Source: Trueperaceae bacterium (GTDB taxonomy: Bacteria; Deinococcota; Deinococci; Deinococcales; Trueperaceae). Taken from it: DNA of 64,000 nucleotides. Below the pieces are notes generated by a model. That model was given only the letters and a program-made list of their open reading frames with translations, had not been told where the DNA came from and made no database searches. The translations under genes and the position numbers were made by a program. Positions 6,407 through 61,500 of this stretch are shown here, piece after piece; within the stretch, counting starts at the first letter, position 1; each line of letters opens with the position of its first letter. The stretch spans positions 2,368,001 through 2,432,000 of the forward strand of contig CBDCDZ010000004.1 of NCBI GenBank assembly GCA_965215565.1. Reading direction: 5' to 3'.

Positions 6407-7372
6407 GTGAAGAGTATCCTAGTACGTGAATACGGTGAGCCGAGCGTCCTTGAAGTCGCAGACCTGCCCGTCCCTGAGCCGAGCGTCGGTCAGGTGCGCA
6501 TCAAAACGGCGTTTACGAGCGTCAACTTTGCGGATATCAAGATGCGGCGTGGAGGCGCACCGCGCCTTCCTTTCACCCCTGGGCTCGACGCGAGCGGTGT
6601 AGTGGACGCGGTTGGGGACAACGTTCAGAACTTCGAAGTCGGGCAGCGCGTGGCAGCGTACGTGGCGGCGGGCTCCTACGCGGCGTACGTTCTCGCTGAA
6701 GCTGAGCTTTGTTATCCCTTGCCGGAAGTCTCGCTCGAGCAGGGCGCAGGCATCGGCATCCTCATCACCGCGTACAACGTACTGACGAATGCAGGGCGAT
6801 TTCGAAGGGGAGAAAGTGTCCTCGTTCATGCGGGCGCGGGTGGCGTCGGGAGTACTTTAGTACAACTCGCCAAAGCGCTAGGCGCTGAGCGCATCTTTGC
6901 CACGGTTGGCAGTGACGAAAAAGCAGAAGTTGCCGCGCAACTCGGAGCCGATGAGGTCATCAACTACAGAAAAAGCGCGTTCGATGAGGTTGTGAATGAA
7001 AAAACTAGTGGAGAGGGCGTAGACCTCATCCTCGATTCGGTGGCTGGACCCAACGCCGAACGGGGGATGAACTGTCTGGCTGACTTTGGGCGCTTAGTGA
7101 TTTACGGACATACGGGCGAAGGCGGCGCGGCAGCGATTAAGAGCACGCTGCTTCACAAGAACAACCGCGCGGTAATCGGCTACAGCAGCGGTGGCTACCG
7201 CAAGGCGCGTCCCGAGGTGTTGCGAGAGGTGGCGGAGCGGGGGTTGAGGCTGCTCGCCTCCGGTGAGGTGGAAATCTTGCTGGGCGAACGCTTCAAGCTA
7301 AAGGACGCCGCCGCCGCGCACGAATTCGTGGAGAGTCGGCGGAGCGTGGGGAAGGTGTTGTTGGAACTTTGA
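6407..7372 (+). CDS. NADPH:quinone oxidoreductase (MDR family)
   Basis: VNFAD, HAGAGGVG, GKVLL motifs. Confidence 0.9.
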   Translation: MKSILVREYGEPSVLEVADLPVPEPSVGQVRIKTAFTSVNFADIKMRRGGAPRLPFTPGLDASGVVDAVGDNVQNFEVGQRVAAYVAAGSYAAYVLAEAELCYPLPEVSLEQGAGIGILITAYNVLTNAGRFRRGESVLVHAGAGGVGSTLVQLAKALGAERIFATVGSDEKAEVAAQLGADEVINYRKSAFDEVVNEKTSGEGVDLILDSVAGPNAERGMNCLADFGRLVIYGHTGEGGAAAIKSTLLHKNNRAVIGYSSGGYRKARPEVLREVAERGLRLLASGEVEILLGERFKLKDAAAAHEFVESRRSVGKVLLEL

Positions 7373-7517
7373 TTGAGCGAAGCTATCTCCGCTTCCGTAG
7401 GCTGCTCCTTTAGGGAGGAGACGGAACGAAGTAACCTGCTATGATCTGCGCCGCACACGCAAGAACGTAATCAAATACCCAACGCACCCCCAAGCTGTGC
7501 TAAACTCCTAAACAAGA

Positions 7518-11856: not shown

Positions 11857-12016
11857 ATAGCACTTCTAGAACTTACTGAGACAGATTGCCGCAGATCTCT
11901 GTCCGCAAGGACTAGCGGGATTTCATCTCTGAAAGTGGGTGCTCATCAATGCTTTCTACAGTGAGAGTGTTGCTTTGCAAAACTTACGTACACTCAAACC
12001 AGATGATACCTGCTAA
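11857..12016 (-). mobile_element. TAGCA repeat family copy C, with two micro-insertions
   Basis: Ends ...CAAACCAGATGATACCTGCTA; aligns to copies D and K. Confidence 0.8.
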
Positions 12017-12239: not shown

Positions 12240-12352
12240 ATAGCAGGTATCATCTGGTTTGAAACACTCTTACTGTAAAGAACACCATCTAGCACGCACA
12301 TTGTGAGATGACATCTGCGCTCATCTGTCTCAGTATATTTTGGAAGTGCTAT
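12240..12352 (+). mobile_element. TAGCA repeat family copy D, 113 bp
   Basis: ATAGCAGGTATCATCTGGTTTGAAAC...GTCTCAGTATATTTTGGAAGTGCTAT. Confidence 0.85.
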
Positions 12353-32796: not shown

Positions 32797-32884
32797 TGTA
32801 TCACGCAGAAATCATCTCTGAAAGTGCGTGCTAATCTGGCAGCTTAAACACCCAGAGCGTTTGTGACCAGATGAGGTTCCGCTA
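32797..32884 (-). mobile_element. TAGCA repeat family copy F, short diverged form
   Basis: GCAGAAATCATCT...AGTGCGTGCTA...GACCAGATGAGGTTCCGCTA. Confidence 0.7.
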
Positions 32885-32905
32885 GCCCAGGGGCTGAGAC
32901 CTGCT

Positions 32906-43040: not shown

Positions 43041-44501
43041 ATGCAAGGTCTAGGTTTAGGCAGGCGTATCGCACTCGTAGCAGGACCGCTGCTCTGCGTC
43101 ATCCCTTTTATATTCTCCGCCCCGGCGGGCTTGTCCGACCCTGCTTGGCGCTTGGTAGGGCTGACGCTTTGGATGGCGACGTGGTGGCTGAGCGAGGTCA
43201 TCCCGCTCGCCGCCACCGCCCTCATCCCGATTCCGATGATGCCGCTTTTGGGCATCGCTGAAGAGGACCCCATCGCCGCGAGCTACGCCGACCCTCTTAT
43301 CTTCCTCTTTCTAGGCGGCTTTCTCATCGCCGCCGCCATGCAGCGCTGGGGACTGCACCGCCGCATCGCCCTCAATATCGTGCGCGTCGTCGGGACGAGT
43401 CCGGGCGGCATCATCGGTGGGTTCATGATCGCTACCGCGTTTTTATCCATGTGGATTTCGAATACAGCGACGTCAGTCATGATGTTCGCCGTCGGTATCT
43501 CTCTAATCGACTACATCGAAGACCACAGCGACGACGCGGCGAAGGTGCGTAATTTCGGCGTGGCGCTCATGTTGGGAATTGCGTATAGCGCCTCAATTGG
43601 TGGGGTTGCGACGCTCATCGGCACGCCGCCGAACGGCCTCATGGCGAGCTTTCTCTCCGACACCTACCAAACGGACATCAACTTCAGCACTTGGATGCTC
43701 ATCGGCGTGCCGATTATGCTCGTCATGCTGCCTATCGTGTGGGTGTGGTTGACCCGCTTAGCGTTTCCGATTAGCGGGATGCAACTTAGCGGGGCGAGCG
43801 ACGTGATTCAAAATGAGGTGGACGAACTCGGCGCGATGAGCCGAGGCGAAAAGATTGTCCTTATCATCTTTGTACTTACCGCCTTGTGCTGGATTGCTGG
43901 TGACTTCATCACGGGAGTTTTAGGGTTGAGCATTTCCGATACAGGCGTCGCTATCGCAGCGTCGGTGGCGCTTTTCGCCATACCCGTGTCGCTCAAGGAC
44001 CGGGAGTTCGCCCTCGACTGGGAGTCGGCGGTGGACATTCCTTGGGGCGTGCTGCTCCTCTTCGGCGGCGGCTTGGCTTTAGCAAGTGCGTTTGGCAGTA
44101 CGGGCTTGGCGGAGTCCATCGGCAACGGCGTCAGCGGGCTGCAAAACGTCAATATTTGGCTCATCGTTCTAGTGGTGAGCGTCGTGATTATCTTCTTGAC
44201 CGAACTCACCTCCAACACGGCGACGGCGGCGACCTTCTTGCCCATCATGGGCGCGGCGGCAGTTGGGCTGGGGCAGAGCCCCTTGCTGCTCGTCGTACCG
44301 GTTGCGGTGTCCGCGTCGATGGCGTTCATGATGCCCGTCGCCACGCCGCCCAACGCGATTGTCTTTGCTTATGAGGGCTTGCGCATTCAAGATATGGTGA
44401 AAGCGGGCGCAATTTTGAACGTATTGACCATCGGCATCGTATTTTTGGCAATGTATTTCTTAGTGCCTCTGGTGCTGGATGTGTCGGTGGGAGTGGGTTA
44501 A
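43041..44501 (+). CDS. DASS/SLC13 sodium:dicarboxylate or sulfate symporter
   Basis: SMWISNTAT, GTPPN, TSNTAT, PVATPPNA. Confidence 0.93.
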   Translation: MQGLGLGRRIALVAGPLLCVIPFIFSAPAGLSDPAWRLVGLTLWMATWWLSEVIPLAATALIPIPMMPLLGIAEEDPIAASYADPLIFLFLGGFLIAAAMQRWGLHRRIALNIVRVVGTSPGGIIGGFMIATAFLSMWISNTATSVMMFAVGISLIDYIEDHSDDAAKVRNFGVALMLGIAYSASIGGVATLIGTPPNGLMASFLSDTYQTDINFSTWMLIGVPIMLVMLPIVWVWLTRLAFPISGMQLSGASDVIQNEVDELGAMSRGEKIVLIIFVLTALCWIAGDFITGVLGLSISDTGVAIAASVALFAIPVSLKDREFALDWESAVDIPWGVLLLFGGGLALASAFGSTGLAESIGNGVSGLQNVNIWLIVLVVSVVIIFLTELTSNTATAATFLPIMGAAAVGLGQSPLLLVVPVAVSASMAFMMPVATPPNAIVFAYEGLRIQDMVKAGAILNVLTIGIVFLAMYFLVPLVLDVSVGVG

Positions 44502-44520
44502 GAATAAGCAATGAGTTCCG

Positions 44521-44583
44521 AGCAATCCAGTCGAGCTGGACGGTACAGTGAGCAATGAGTGAAAATCTTCAGACTCATTGCTC
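44521..44583. repeat. TGAGCAA-type palindromic repeat, shared with 61089-61299
   Basis: 35-nt hairpin with 2 mismatches to 61265-61299, plus AGCAATCCAGTCRAGCTGG at both loci. Confidence 0.75.
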
Positions 44584-44628
44584 GTTGCTTTTAACTTTTC
44601 TCAGTGCCTATTGCTCCCGGCTGAGGGC

Positions 44629-45755: not shown

Positions 45756-45866
45756 TTGTATCACGCAGATATCATCTCTAAACGTGCGCGTTGCATGGTG
45801 TTAATTTTAGTGAGAGCGTTGATGACCAGCTCCGAACGTAGTGAGACAGACTTTGATACCTGCTAT
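45756..45866 (-). mobile_element. TAGCA repeat family copy H, short form with a 24-nt insertion
   Basis: GCAGATATCATCT...GACCAG[CTCCGAACGTAGTGAGACAGACTT]TGATACCTGCTAT. Confidence 0.75.
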
Positions 45867-55562: not shown

Positions 55563-55841
55563 GTGACATTTTTTATCGTAGCTAAAGACGCGGCGGACGC
55601 TTCGGAGCGCCGCCAAAAGGTGCGAGACCAACACCTGCGCGAGATCGAGTCGCACGTCAAGGCGAAGCGCGTCCTCATGGGCGGGGCAATCTTAGATGAC
55701 GATGGCAATGTCATCGGCTCGGGGTTGGTGGCGGAATTTTCCTCGAGGGAGACCTTGGACGAATTTTTGCAGAGCGACATCTATACCAGAGAAGGCGTCT
55801 GGGAGAGCTTCGAGATTTATCCATTTAAGCGGGCTGTCTAA
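55563..55841 (+). CDS. YciI family protein
   Basis: R...R..HL, GG..LD, GS, D.Y...GVW. Confidence 0.88.
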   Translation: MTFFIVAKDAADASERRQKVRDQHLREIESHVKAKRVLMGGAILDDDGNVIGSGLVAEFSSRETLDEFLQSDIYTREGVWESFEIYPFKRAV

Positions 55842-55844
55842 CTA

Positions 55845-56053
55845 ATAGCAGGTATCATCTGGTTTGAGTGCGCGGAGCGATGCGAAGCAACACTCTCACT
55901 ATGCAAAGCGGTGTTGCTAAGCAGCAAACTTGCGCAACTAGCACGCACATTCGAAGATGAAATCCCGCAACGGCAGGGCGGCCTGCCCGTAACGCTAGTC
56001 CTTGCGGACAGAGATCTGCGCTCATCCGTCTCAGTATGTCTTGGAACTGCTAC
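55845..56053 (+). mobile_element. TAGCA repeat family copy K, 209 bp, four micro-insertions (one nested)
   Basis: Both ends match copies D/E; insertions at the same sites as in copy C. Confidence 0.85.
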
Positions 56054-56066
56054 AAGAGGTCCCAAA

Positions 56067-56612
56067 CTGACGCTCTACGACTGGCTCGTCCGCGCCGACT
56101 TCGTGCTCGCGGTGCTCCTCACGGTACTCGCGCCGCTCGGTCTACTCCTCTGGTCCGCGTTGAGAGGGCGAGAGGTCATCGTCCGCCAACTCGTCACCTA
56201 TTGGCGCGTCTCGTCGCTGCTCATGGTCACGGTTTACCTGCTCGCGGCGGCCGCGCCGATAGGCTTTCTTACGGGCGTGCTGGCGAGGGTGCTCATCCCT
56301 CTCTCGTTGGGATTCGGGTGGCTGAAAGATAAGGGGGAGGGGAGGCTCGAGACCACCTTCTACCGCTGGAAGCAAGTCGTAAGTCTGTACTGTCTCGTCG
56401 GCGTCCTCTTCAACCTGCCGCTCCTACGCTGCACCTTCACCTGGCAAATTCAGCCCCCCTGTACCGCTTGGCTGGGTCCGGTGAGGGAGTTCGTGGGGCT
56501 CGTACATCCGGGTGTAAGCCTCGACGTCCTCGGGGTGCTGGCTTGGATCGCGCTCGGCATTTACATCGTAGTGTTCGTTACTCTTTACGCTCGAGATACG
56601 AATGCGACTTAG
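56067..56612 (+). CDS. DUF3177-like membrane protein (start uncertain)
   Basis: D..LAVLLTV..PL.LL.W, YWRVSSLL.VTVYL. Confidence 0.7.
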   Translation: MTLYDWLVRADFVLAVLLTVLAPLGLLLWSALRGREVIVRQLVTYWRVSSLLMVTVYLLAAAAPIGFLTGVLARVLIPLSLGFGWLKDKGEGRLETTFYRWKQVVSLYCLVGVLFNLPLLRCTFTWQIQPPCTAWLGPVREFVGLVHPGVSLDVLGVLAWIALGIYIVVFVTLYARDTNAT

Positions 56613-61052: not shown

Positions 61053-61500
61053 AGTACATGGACTGCAAGACTACGCCGTTCTAAAAGAAGCAATCCAGTC
61101 AAGCTGGTTCGCGCTAGCACTTGCGAAGCAAACGAACGGTGAGTTAAAAGCACAGGTCAGAGCGAAGCTCAAATAGGTTAGAGCAAAGCTCAGTAGGCTC
61201 TTACAGGTGAGCACAAAGTGCAACGGCTTTCAGCCTTAACCTGTGCACTATGTGCTTCACCTAATGAGCAATGCGTGAAAATCTTTAGACTCATTGCTCA
61301 TTGCCCACTACTCCGCGCAGCCGAATCAAAACTTATAGCCATCCTCTCCTCACATCCCCTCAAATATTAGCCCCCGTCCCTTTTCAACAAGTCACTCGAG
61401 CGAGTAGAGTACGGGTGAATAGACCTATAGAGGAAGCAGACGCATGGCGGGACCTGCTCCTATGCGCTTTTACAGGTCTTTGACAGAAGGGACTAAACCT

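Follow-up and report, generated by a model that had tools for sequence, protein, structure and literature searches.

We describe families of 17-27-nt DNA inserts that lodge in the repeats of a Trueperaceae bacterium and in one another. The pieces are derived insertions at non-homologous sites, which we state with high confidence, and they are likely micro-elements of the kind known as small dispersed repeats (SDR), moving as single-stranded DNA. In the window, that is, the whole 64,000-nt stretch of DNA analysed, the copy of a 111-bp host repeat that we call copy K holds four such inserts. Copy K, its surroundings and the other host copies of the window referred to below are as follows.

55846..56052, + strand: copy K, the 111-bp host plus 96 nt of inserts, four in all, one inside another
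55843..55845, + strand: left 3-bp target duplication of the copy K host, TAA, with one mismatch to the right copy
56053..56055, + strand: right 3-bp target duplication of the copy K host, CAA, found once at the empty G001 site
55869..55889, + strand: insert 1 of copy K, family B, 21 nt, with two G-N-A mini-hairpins on the + strand, directly before a host A, no duplication
55915..55937, - strand: insert 2 of copy K, family A, 23 nt, a mini-hairpin and a larger hairpin read on the - strand, directly before the target A on the - strand, no duplication
55961..56013, - strand: insert 3 of copy K, family C, its own hairpin-plus-tail unit 26 nt long, replacing host base 72 (T on +, A on -) and interrupted by the nested piece
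55969..55995, - strand: nested piece within insert 3 of copy K, family D, a 25-nt hairpin plus a 2-nt GC duplication
55563..55841, + strand: YciI-like gene (PF03795), upstream of copy K
56067..56612, + strand: DUF3177 reading frame (PF11375), downstream of copy K, with an open frame that reaches back to 55911, inside the host
11858..12015, - strand: host copy C, with a 22-nt family-B variant at 11971-11992 and a family-C insert without D at 11897-11922
45830..45853, - strand: family-F insert in host copy H (which starts at 45865 and runs downward), 24 nt, replacing one host T at host position 12/13
32875..32898, - strand: family-C insert in a diverged host copy, at position 9, which is position 72's inverted twin
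12241..12351, + strand: empty 111-bp host copy D
10300, 24645 (- strand), 29330 (- strand), 52714 and 54466: further empty host copies

A preliminary description of this DNA had reported three inserts and a nested fourth in copy K, the third insert without the nested piece together with a variant of the first in copy C, and a different 24-nt insert in copy H. All of these are present in the sequence, the copy C variant being 22 nt long and the copy H insert lying at host position 12/13. The borders then given for inserts 1 and 2 were off by one base because copy K had been compared with the diverged copy D. The backbone of copy K is 1-2 nt away from four empty copies and equally close to three with other insert sets. 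In public data, contigs from one sample, which is probably the source, match pieces of copy K with no differences listed, and none of them spans the whole copy. Matches of copy K to plasmids numbered six, all short and chance-like, and an Rfam scan of the 64-kb window gave no match at gathering thresholds. A search of sequencing runs listed no RNA data set as a carrier. Through copy K, the DUF3177 open frame spans window positions 55911-56612, and the G001 ortholog lacks the host; copy K could in principle give this frame an N-terminal extension.

The host repeat is 111 bp long and MITE-like, with the ends TAGCAG and CTGCTA. A profile search of the genome under study (G000; G001 and G002 are sister genomes of the same genus) gave 528 host loci after chaining, of which 286 are full length. 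The exact 111-nt length is found in 122 of these 286, and longer copies cluster at steps of about 21-25 nt. Among 183 intact-ended copies, 110 have 3-bp direct repeats outside the host ends and 4 have 4-bp repeats. The host behaves as a MITE: it has a terminal inverted repeat, a target duplication and an empty orthologous site, the G001 site orthologous to copy K lacking the host and having CAA once. It is like the bacterial MITEs ERIC, RUP, Correia and Nezha, as presented in the accessible part of PMC3184786, in its hundreds of copies, short terminal inverted repeat, 3-bp duplication and empty orthologous site; this likeness, within the same part of PMC3184786, is limited to the host and does not extend to the inserts. 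The host is present in 5 of the 41 genomes searched. No autonomous element sharing its ends was found in G000, where IS5-family elements with TAG..CTA ends are present.

Larger inserts of about 100 nt with their own inverted ends also sit at host site 48 (G000:C4 3,659,042-3,659,256; 3,126,784-3,127,045; near 610,000 and 4,098,800) and form a second MITE tier that targets the 111-bp host. In G020, from another genus (L031-L040), the host variant is young and homogeneous; a hairpin stretch of its own follows position 22, and some copies have an extra 18-nt unit. Within the window, a truncated host left end (7365-7441, - strand) has a family-B insert that is itself interrupted by further nested units.

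Inserts were called by aligning long full-length hosts to the nearest 111-nt copy and counting insertions of at least 8 nt. This gave 224 inserts in the 286 full-length hosts, and 218 of the 224 lie at five fixed positions: position 11 (10 inserts), 22-23 (54), 47-50 (66), 67-69 (67) and 73-76 (21). They fall into at least seven families (A-G) of 17-27 nt overall, family E being shorter at 17-22 nt. Nesting is not confined to copy K; we saw A in A, A in B, E in A, E in B, C in C and D in C. The inserts far exceed chance expectation, with 91 matches to the family-B pattern compared to 3 in the reversed genome, and 37 matches to the pattern of the nested piece (family D) compared to none.

The same families also occur outside the host. 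A de novo search for 17-33-nt indels with an empty paralog, filtered by flank identity as the unfiltered list was mostly noise, gave 370 filled/empty pairs on contig C4, of which 113 lie outside the host mask. Many of these 113 are heavily nested hosts missed by the mask, or heptamer slippage, and about 35-40 were judged by inspection to be genuine insertions into repeats unrelated to the host, among them heptamer arrays and IS630 relics, in at least 10 target contexts. Such a search can detect inserts in multi-copy repeats only. One example from the window is a member of this group.

61109..61132, + strand: 24-nt two-hairpin insert in an unrelated heptamer-array repeat, with the empty form at window positions 44528-44550

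A search inside and outside the host, as the preliminary description had proposed, thus finds the same families in unrelated repeats with empty paralogs, and its concern that the inserts might be confined to one site does not hold, as unrelated sites are occupied. Inserts interrupt IS reading frames as well. The heptamer tandem arrays (window 44500-44590 and 61090-61305) are a second host repeat, whose own 21-22-nt hairpin units take family A and B inserts, and two IS630 relics (L019 1-2230) are riddled with host copies, a mini element of about 40 bp with inverted ends, and family A, D and G inserts.

Families differ in their spread. Family D was located in one element of the IS256 type, in an IS630 relic, in heptamer arrays and, in another genus, in two contexts, and is found in 5 of 102 genomes, from two genera; viral contigs gave no match, and metagenomes gave 12, all chance-like and within reading frames. 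The family-A tail exceeds its reversed control in three genomes of the genus under study (183 versus 24, 152 versus 18 and 111 versus 15). Across 35 genera and 102 genomes, it is clearly above the reversed control in this one genus only, with three other genomes about twofold above it on small counts. G092, an unpublished genome, enters the genome tallies (family-A tail, family D, Y1, GIY-YIG and Uma2) as one row and supports none of the claims.

We then turn to the junctions, where the preliminary description had read 3-bp target duplications. Insert 3 was said to be flanked by a duplicated ATC. Across 112 filled sites of family C, the left and right triplets are equal in only 33, the left ATC belongs to the insert itself, and one host base is replaced. 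Of 206 empty copies, 191 have T at host position 72, 9 have G and 6 have C; of 70 filled copies, 53 have G there and 14 have A, the remaining 3 being unread. Family C therefore replaces one base, since the T of most empty copies is never found in filled ones. Families F and G also replace one target base. The nested piece was said to be flanked by a duplicated CGC; the actual repeat beside family D is 2 nt, GC or, in heptamer arrays, GA, with CGC in 2 of 7 contexts and mismatched sides in one D copy. Families A, B and E insert cleanly without any duplication, as inserts 1 and 2 exemplify, so the 3-bp target duplications read earlier are wrong. When held against IS200/IS605 insertion, which neither duplicates nor loses target bases, A, B and E fit in appearance, and C, F and G (one base lost) and D (2-nt repeat) do not.

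A different regularity emerges when junctions are oriented by each insert's own G-N-A loops. Of 90 clean insert-site pairs, 83 then have A as the target base that follows on the G-N-A strand, compared to a background of 21%. Where a base is lost, it is A on this strand in 36 of 58 cases, and the other 22 (G 13, T 5, C 4) come, by inspection, mostly from imperfect paralog pairs. Family-A variants ending in G rather than A visibly replace the target A, at site 75 and elsewhere. Together this suggests one rule, by which the element would take the place of the target adenine, invisibly so when it ends in A. Family D does not clearly follow the adenine rule.

The architecture of the inserts is likewise oriented: each has one or two mini-hairpins and a tail, with strand polarity. 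Thus the earlier idea of a second tier of very short mobile palindromes stands as to the tier, its accumulation in the host, the nesting and the gains, and falls as to simple palindromes and 3-bp duplications. The stems covary. In the first stem of family B, 60 of 69 cells pair in 23 variants, compared to a mean of 36.5 and a maximum of 47 in 5000 shuffles, a figure that is not a probability, as the variants are related; the loops in this set were dictated by the search pattern. When host anchors alone were used to excise the inserts, G-N(N)-A loops are found at site 23 in 20 of 21 and 18 of 21 variants, and G-N(N)-A first loops at site 48, on the opposite strand, in 21 of 21. Single inserts fold no better than shuffles (z from -1.9 to +1.0). 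Mini-hairpins of GCGNAGC and GCGNNAGC DNA are, according to the portion of PMC13037366 available, exceptionally stable, nuclease-resistant and missed by standard models; the same portion of PMC13037366 describes TTC-loop DNA hairpins as lacking such stability and nuclease resistance. From the G-N-A loops on one strand and the stability of such DNA mini-hairpins we infer a single-stranded DNA form. The orientation of inserts has no bias relative to replication or transcription (p 0.3-1), in a genome whose hosts themselves move and whose GC skew, no more than about 0.06 per 150 kb, is too slight for such a bias to be judged fairly.

How filled sites came to be distributed among host copies was examined on the host tree. 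Near-identical backbones frequently differ in insert content (122 of 163 pairs), and parsimony changes at sites 23, 48 and 69 number 43, 49 and 57, compared to shuffled means of 49, 57 and 63. The tree of the 111-nt host is poorly resolved, so scattered presence proves neither repeated insertion nor conversion; it is compatible with repeated insertion, with conversion among copies, or with the two combined. Many stem variants share a single site, and one of the variants is accompanied by differing bases at 1-3 nt from its junction. The many two-sided variants per site and the differing alleles beside the junction favour repeated insertion.

We lean, with moderate confidence, towards the following account. 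The inserts would be families of non-autonomous 17-27-base hairpin elements, likely moved singly as single-stranded DNA and joined at a target adenine by a predicted trans-acting, structure-reading strand-transfer enzyme with HUH-like chemistry. The G-N-A strand would be the mobile form and would fold into nuclease-resistant mini-hairpins; the predicted protein would read structure more than sequence and join the piece at the target A, or in place of it; and replication or repair would then fix the joined piece. Movement of the host MITE, probably by an IS5-like DDE enzyme, and conversion between host copies may have spread filled copies further. To our knowledge, described HUH transposition involves no loss of one target base. 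HUH-like chemistry is nonetheless the best analogy in the accessible text of PMC8266576, where HUH Y1 enzymes cut and rejoin single-stranded DNA beside hairpins. Counting against this account are the lack of a mover gene, the 2-nt duplication of family D and its unclear fit to the adenine rule, the 22 of 58 lost bases other than A, the absence of strand bias (within the limits of the weak GC skew) and the shuffle-like folding of single inserts; excised or circular forms were not seen.

The alternative that survives best, although unlikely, is that a few old insertions were later shuffled among hosts by gene conversion or recombination, the pieces being rarely or no longer mobile. The scattered presence over the host tree and the many near-identical backbones with different content speak for it, as does the location of nearly all filled sites in multi-copy repeats, the only kind that the filled/empty search can see. 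Conversion cannot, however, put one family into non-homologous repeats, IS genes or other inserts, and the two-sided stem variants at one site and the differing junction-adjacent alleles argue for repeated entry.

Deinococcota are rich in repair functions, and we count this in favour of a second alternative, in which no dedicated transposase exists and host repair ligates nuclease-resistant mini-hairpin fragments into nicks or one-base excision gaps at A:T (or A:U). Such capture would explain the one target base lost in families C, F and G and agrees with the lack of a mover gene and with the nuclease resistance of mini-hairpins in the available portion of PMC13037366. Yet the strict choice of site and orientation and the family-specific targets would need recognition beyond generic repair, and family A is enriched in one of 35 genera though repair genes are expected throughout Trueperaceae. 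We give repair capture only a small chance.

Very improbable is movement of the pieces by a resident IS110 bridge recombinase. All 8 left and all 8 right IS110 ends in G000 join the host at positions 9-11, a site also used by families C and G, and one family-C end shares, by inspection, 9 nt with an IS110 end junction. Those 9 nt are in the opposite orientation and unsplit by the insertion, and, unlike C and G, which replace a base, IS110 retains the target base and duplicates a 2-nt core; no crossover in a duplicated 2-nt core matching the bridge RNA was found in the inserts. Moreover, most insert sites are unlike the IS110 target, G005 has family D (5 copies) but no IS110 match, and a 21-bp double-stranded circle is implausible on established knowledge.

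Hardly any weight falls on the possibility, which the preliminary description had itself raised, that the short copies derive from an ancestral long form through microhomology deletion. Were a family-C insert deleted in this way, G or A would be left at position 72. No more than 9 of the 206 empty copies, those with G, can therefore be such losses, and some losses are probable. The T in 191 of the 206 could not be restored by such deletion, which largely refutes the idea; neither site 23 nor site 48 is flanked by repeats, the hosts inspected in G005 (8 loci) are about 111 nt long without such inserts by inspection, and the interruption of IS reading frames also speaks against it.

Finally, despite the 3-bp duplications of the host itself (110 of 183) and the presence of IS5-family elements, the reading of the inserts as micro-MITEs moved by a DDE transposase with 3-bp target duplications has next to no probability and is refuted for A, B, C, E, F and G, since the inserts have neither shared terminal inverted repeats nor fixed 3-bp duplications, which leaves a DDE/MITE-type mechanism for them unsupported and is why we do not class them as MITEs.

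With movement as single-stranded hairpin elements as the preferred reading, we compared the inserts with known systems. Elhai et al. in 2008 (Genome Res 18:1484) reportedly described SDR of Nostocaceae with shared structure and compensatory changes, located in mini-transposons and heptamer repeats and nested in themselves. The inserts described here are dispersed, about 21-27 nt long (family E shorter) and present in many copies, have covarying stems, and are found in a mini-transposon, in heptamer repeats and nested. SDR of Nostocaceae are also treated in PMC4390886, PMC5861425, PMC3116915 and PMC2884548, and the available parts of these SDR-citing papers place SDR5 between bases 3 and 4 of HIP1. 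With the SDR side taken as reported, the likeness comprises a size of about 20-27 nt, precise insertion, nesting, lodging in mini-transposons and heptamer arrays, covarying structure and no known mover. The inserts differ in belonging to Deinococcota rather than cyanobacteria, in their at least seven families with their own targets, and in the one-base replacement in C, F and G. The comparison with SDR1-8 is one of layout and description, not of family consensus sequence.

A pattern search, with the G-N-A loop built into the pattern, yielded 39 inserts of 21-27 nt that interrupt HIP1 in four cyanobacterial genomes, and none in G000. These cyanobacterial inserts consist of a G-N-A mini-hairpin and a second hairpin followed by the target A, and occupy the position given for SDR5. 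A 15-nt family-E motif, picked for its likeness to a known repeat, is found at no fewer than 119 loci, and 17 of those listed are cyanobacterial, in a related hairpin context. One 13-nt insert hairpin has an exact counterpart in a cyanobacterial HIP1 insert, an identity that could be coincidental for hairpins so short; the layout common to Trueperaceae and HIP1 inserts is the stronger point, by common descent or convergence. Identity with SDR5 was rejected, as its HIP1 target is absent (0 matches in G000).

Other systems resemble the inserts less closely or in part. REP/REPIN are short intergenic hairpins thought, in the accessible parts of PMC8266576 and PMC3116915, to be non-autonomous substrates of the single-strand enzyme RAYT (TnpA-REP). 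Identity with REP/REPIN-RAYT was rejected because the GTAG-type tag is absent, any of four tag-like 4-mers being found in only 2 of 42 insert variants, and there is no RAYT. By comparison with REP/REPIN as covered in those parts of PMC8266576 and PMC3116915, the inserts have no adjacent RAYT, doublets, BIMEs or C|T rule, and single units nest in other repeats. The IS200/IS605 peel-and-paste elements and their non-autonomous derivatives, treated in part in PMC8266576, are alike in their strand-specific hairpins, lack of target duplication and one-sided target; the inserts are far smaller, lose a target base in some families, come from genomes without a free TnpA (G000-G002), and display no guide-target covariation. 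The mosaic small noncoding repeats (SNRs) of Deinococcus radiodurans, modular short repeats from the same phylum, are likened by description only, as given in the part of PMC1978522 available.

A more far-reaching possibility, which we offer tentatively and hold to be rather less than probable, is that the inserts and the cyanobacterial SDR5-type elements are branches of one class of minimal mobile DNA that spans phyla: G-N-A-capped single strands of 17-27 nt, spliced at or in place of a single adenine by a putative enzyme that is not Y1, DDE, IS110 or reverse transcriptase. If true, this would mean a new transposition chemistry and a natural system of precise oligonucleotide insertion. We found no paper on these elements in Trueperaceae in a literature search that covered few subscription papers, and the strand and junction rules may already stand in Elhai et al. 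2008. How DNA pieces of about 21 bases move is said to have been an open question since that SDR report. In the present genome, filled and empty sites number in the hundreds and several families are represented; with clear strand polarity and a one-base junction rule, they supply exact oligonucleotide substrates with predicted products. A second phylum with the same design makes shared candidate genes searchable, and a dedicated enzyme, if one exists, would constitute a minimal and precise single-strand insertion system.

The search for such an enzyme included the linked HUH and RAYT genes that the preliminary description had named; none was found. No free-standing Y1/RAYT exists among the G000 matches, and a relaxed profile of our own, run on ORFs of at least 90 aa, gave no other. 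The sole Y1/HUH domain of G000 lies inside a type IIG restriction-methylase frame of 1319 aa (L017 2708-6667, - strand) that has its own palindromes. G001 and G002, both rich in family A, have no Y1 match, and Y1 matches are found in 20 of 60 other genomes of Trueperaceae. No cognate Y1 gene flanked by insert repeats was found, and HUH families had no match in the 65 of 89 ORFs scanned in the small contigs C1-C3. A standard Y1/RAYT is thus unlikely to be the mover here. Reverse transcriptase (PF00078) is absent from G000, which therefore gives no support to an RNA-templated route via a standard RT. Guide pairing for family A was rejected, as a variant with an AG/CT first stem is still found at AC targets.

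Other nucleases were considered as well. Small GIY-YIG genes are widespread and not flanked by inserts in the 10 loci read, although a host copy lies beside one in G001 and G002, and DUF559 has no match in G000. Uma2 nucleases are present in 26-35 copies in all five D-positive genomes, but G018, G050, G051, G052, G053, G054 and G101, which have neither D nor family-A enrichment, show an expansion too (17-35). Nor do Uma2 genes lie close to the elements, with 4 of 31 within 300 bp of a host (background 18%). Uma2 as the mover is a weak lead. Genes with elements on both sides (17 of 18 scanned) are housekeeping, unannotated or IS1 fragments.

Several further features were seen in the course of this survey. 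Uma2 genes (PF05685) number 26-35 each in G000, G001, G002, G005 and G049, compared to 0-2 in many other genera of Trueperaceae. The IS110-family element of G000 (L023 1229-2486; G000:C4 ~681,600-682,800) and six more copies always lie at host position 9-11 with a 2-nt TC core on both sides, and parts of the left non-coding end match the target and the end junction, as expected of a bridge RNA. The recA gene is present in two near-identical copies (L008 250-1353; G000:C4 ~292,000 and 3,841,100), with 99.9% identity over 999 bp. Small contig C2 has a Thg1-like gene (3'-5' nucleotide addition) beside an AAA_33 gene (L273 6644-7934).
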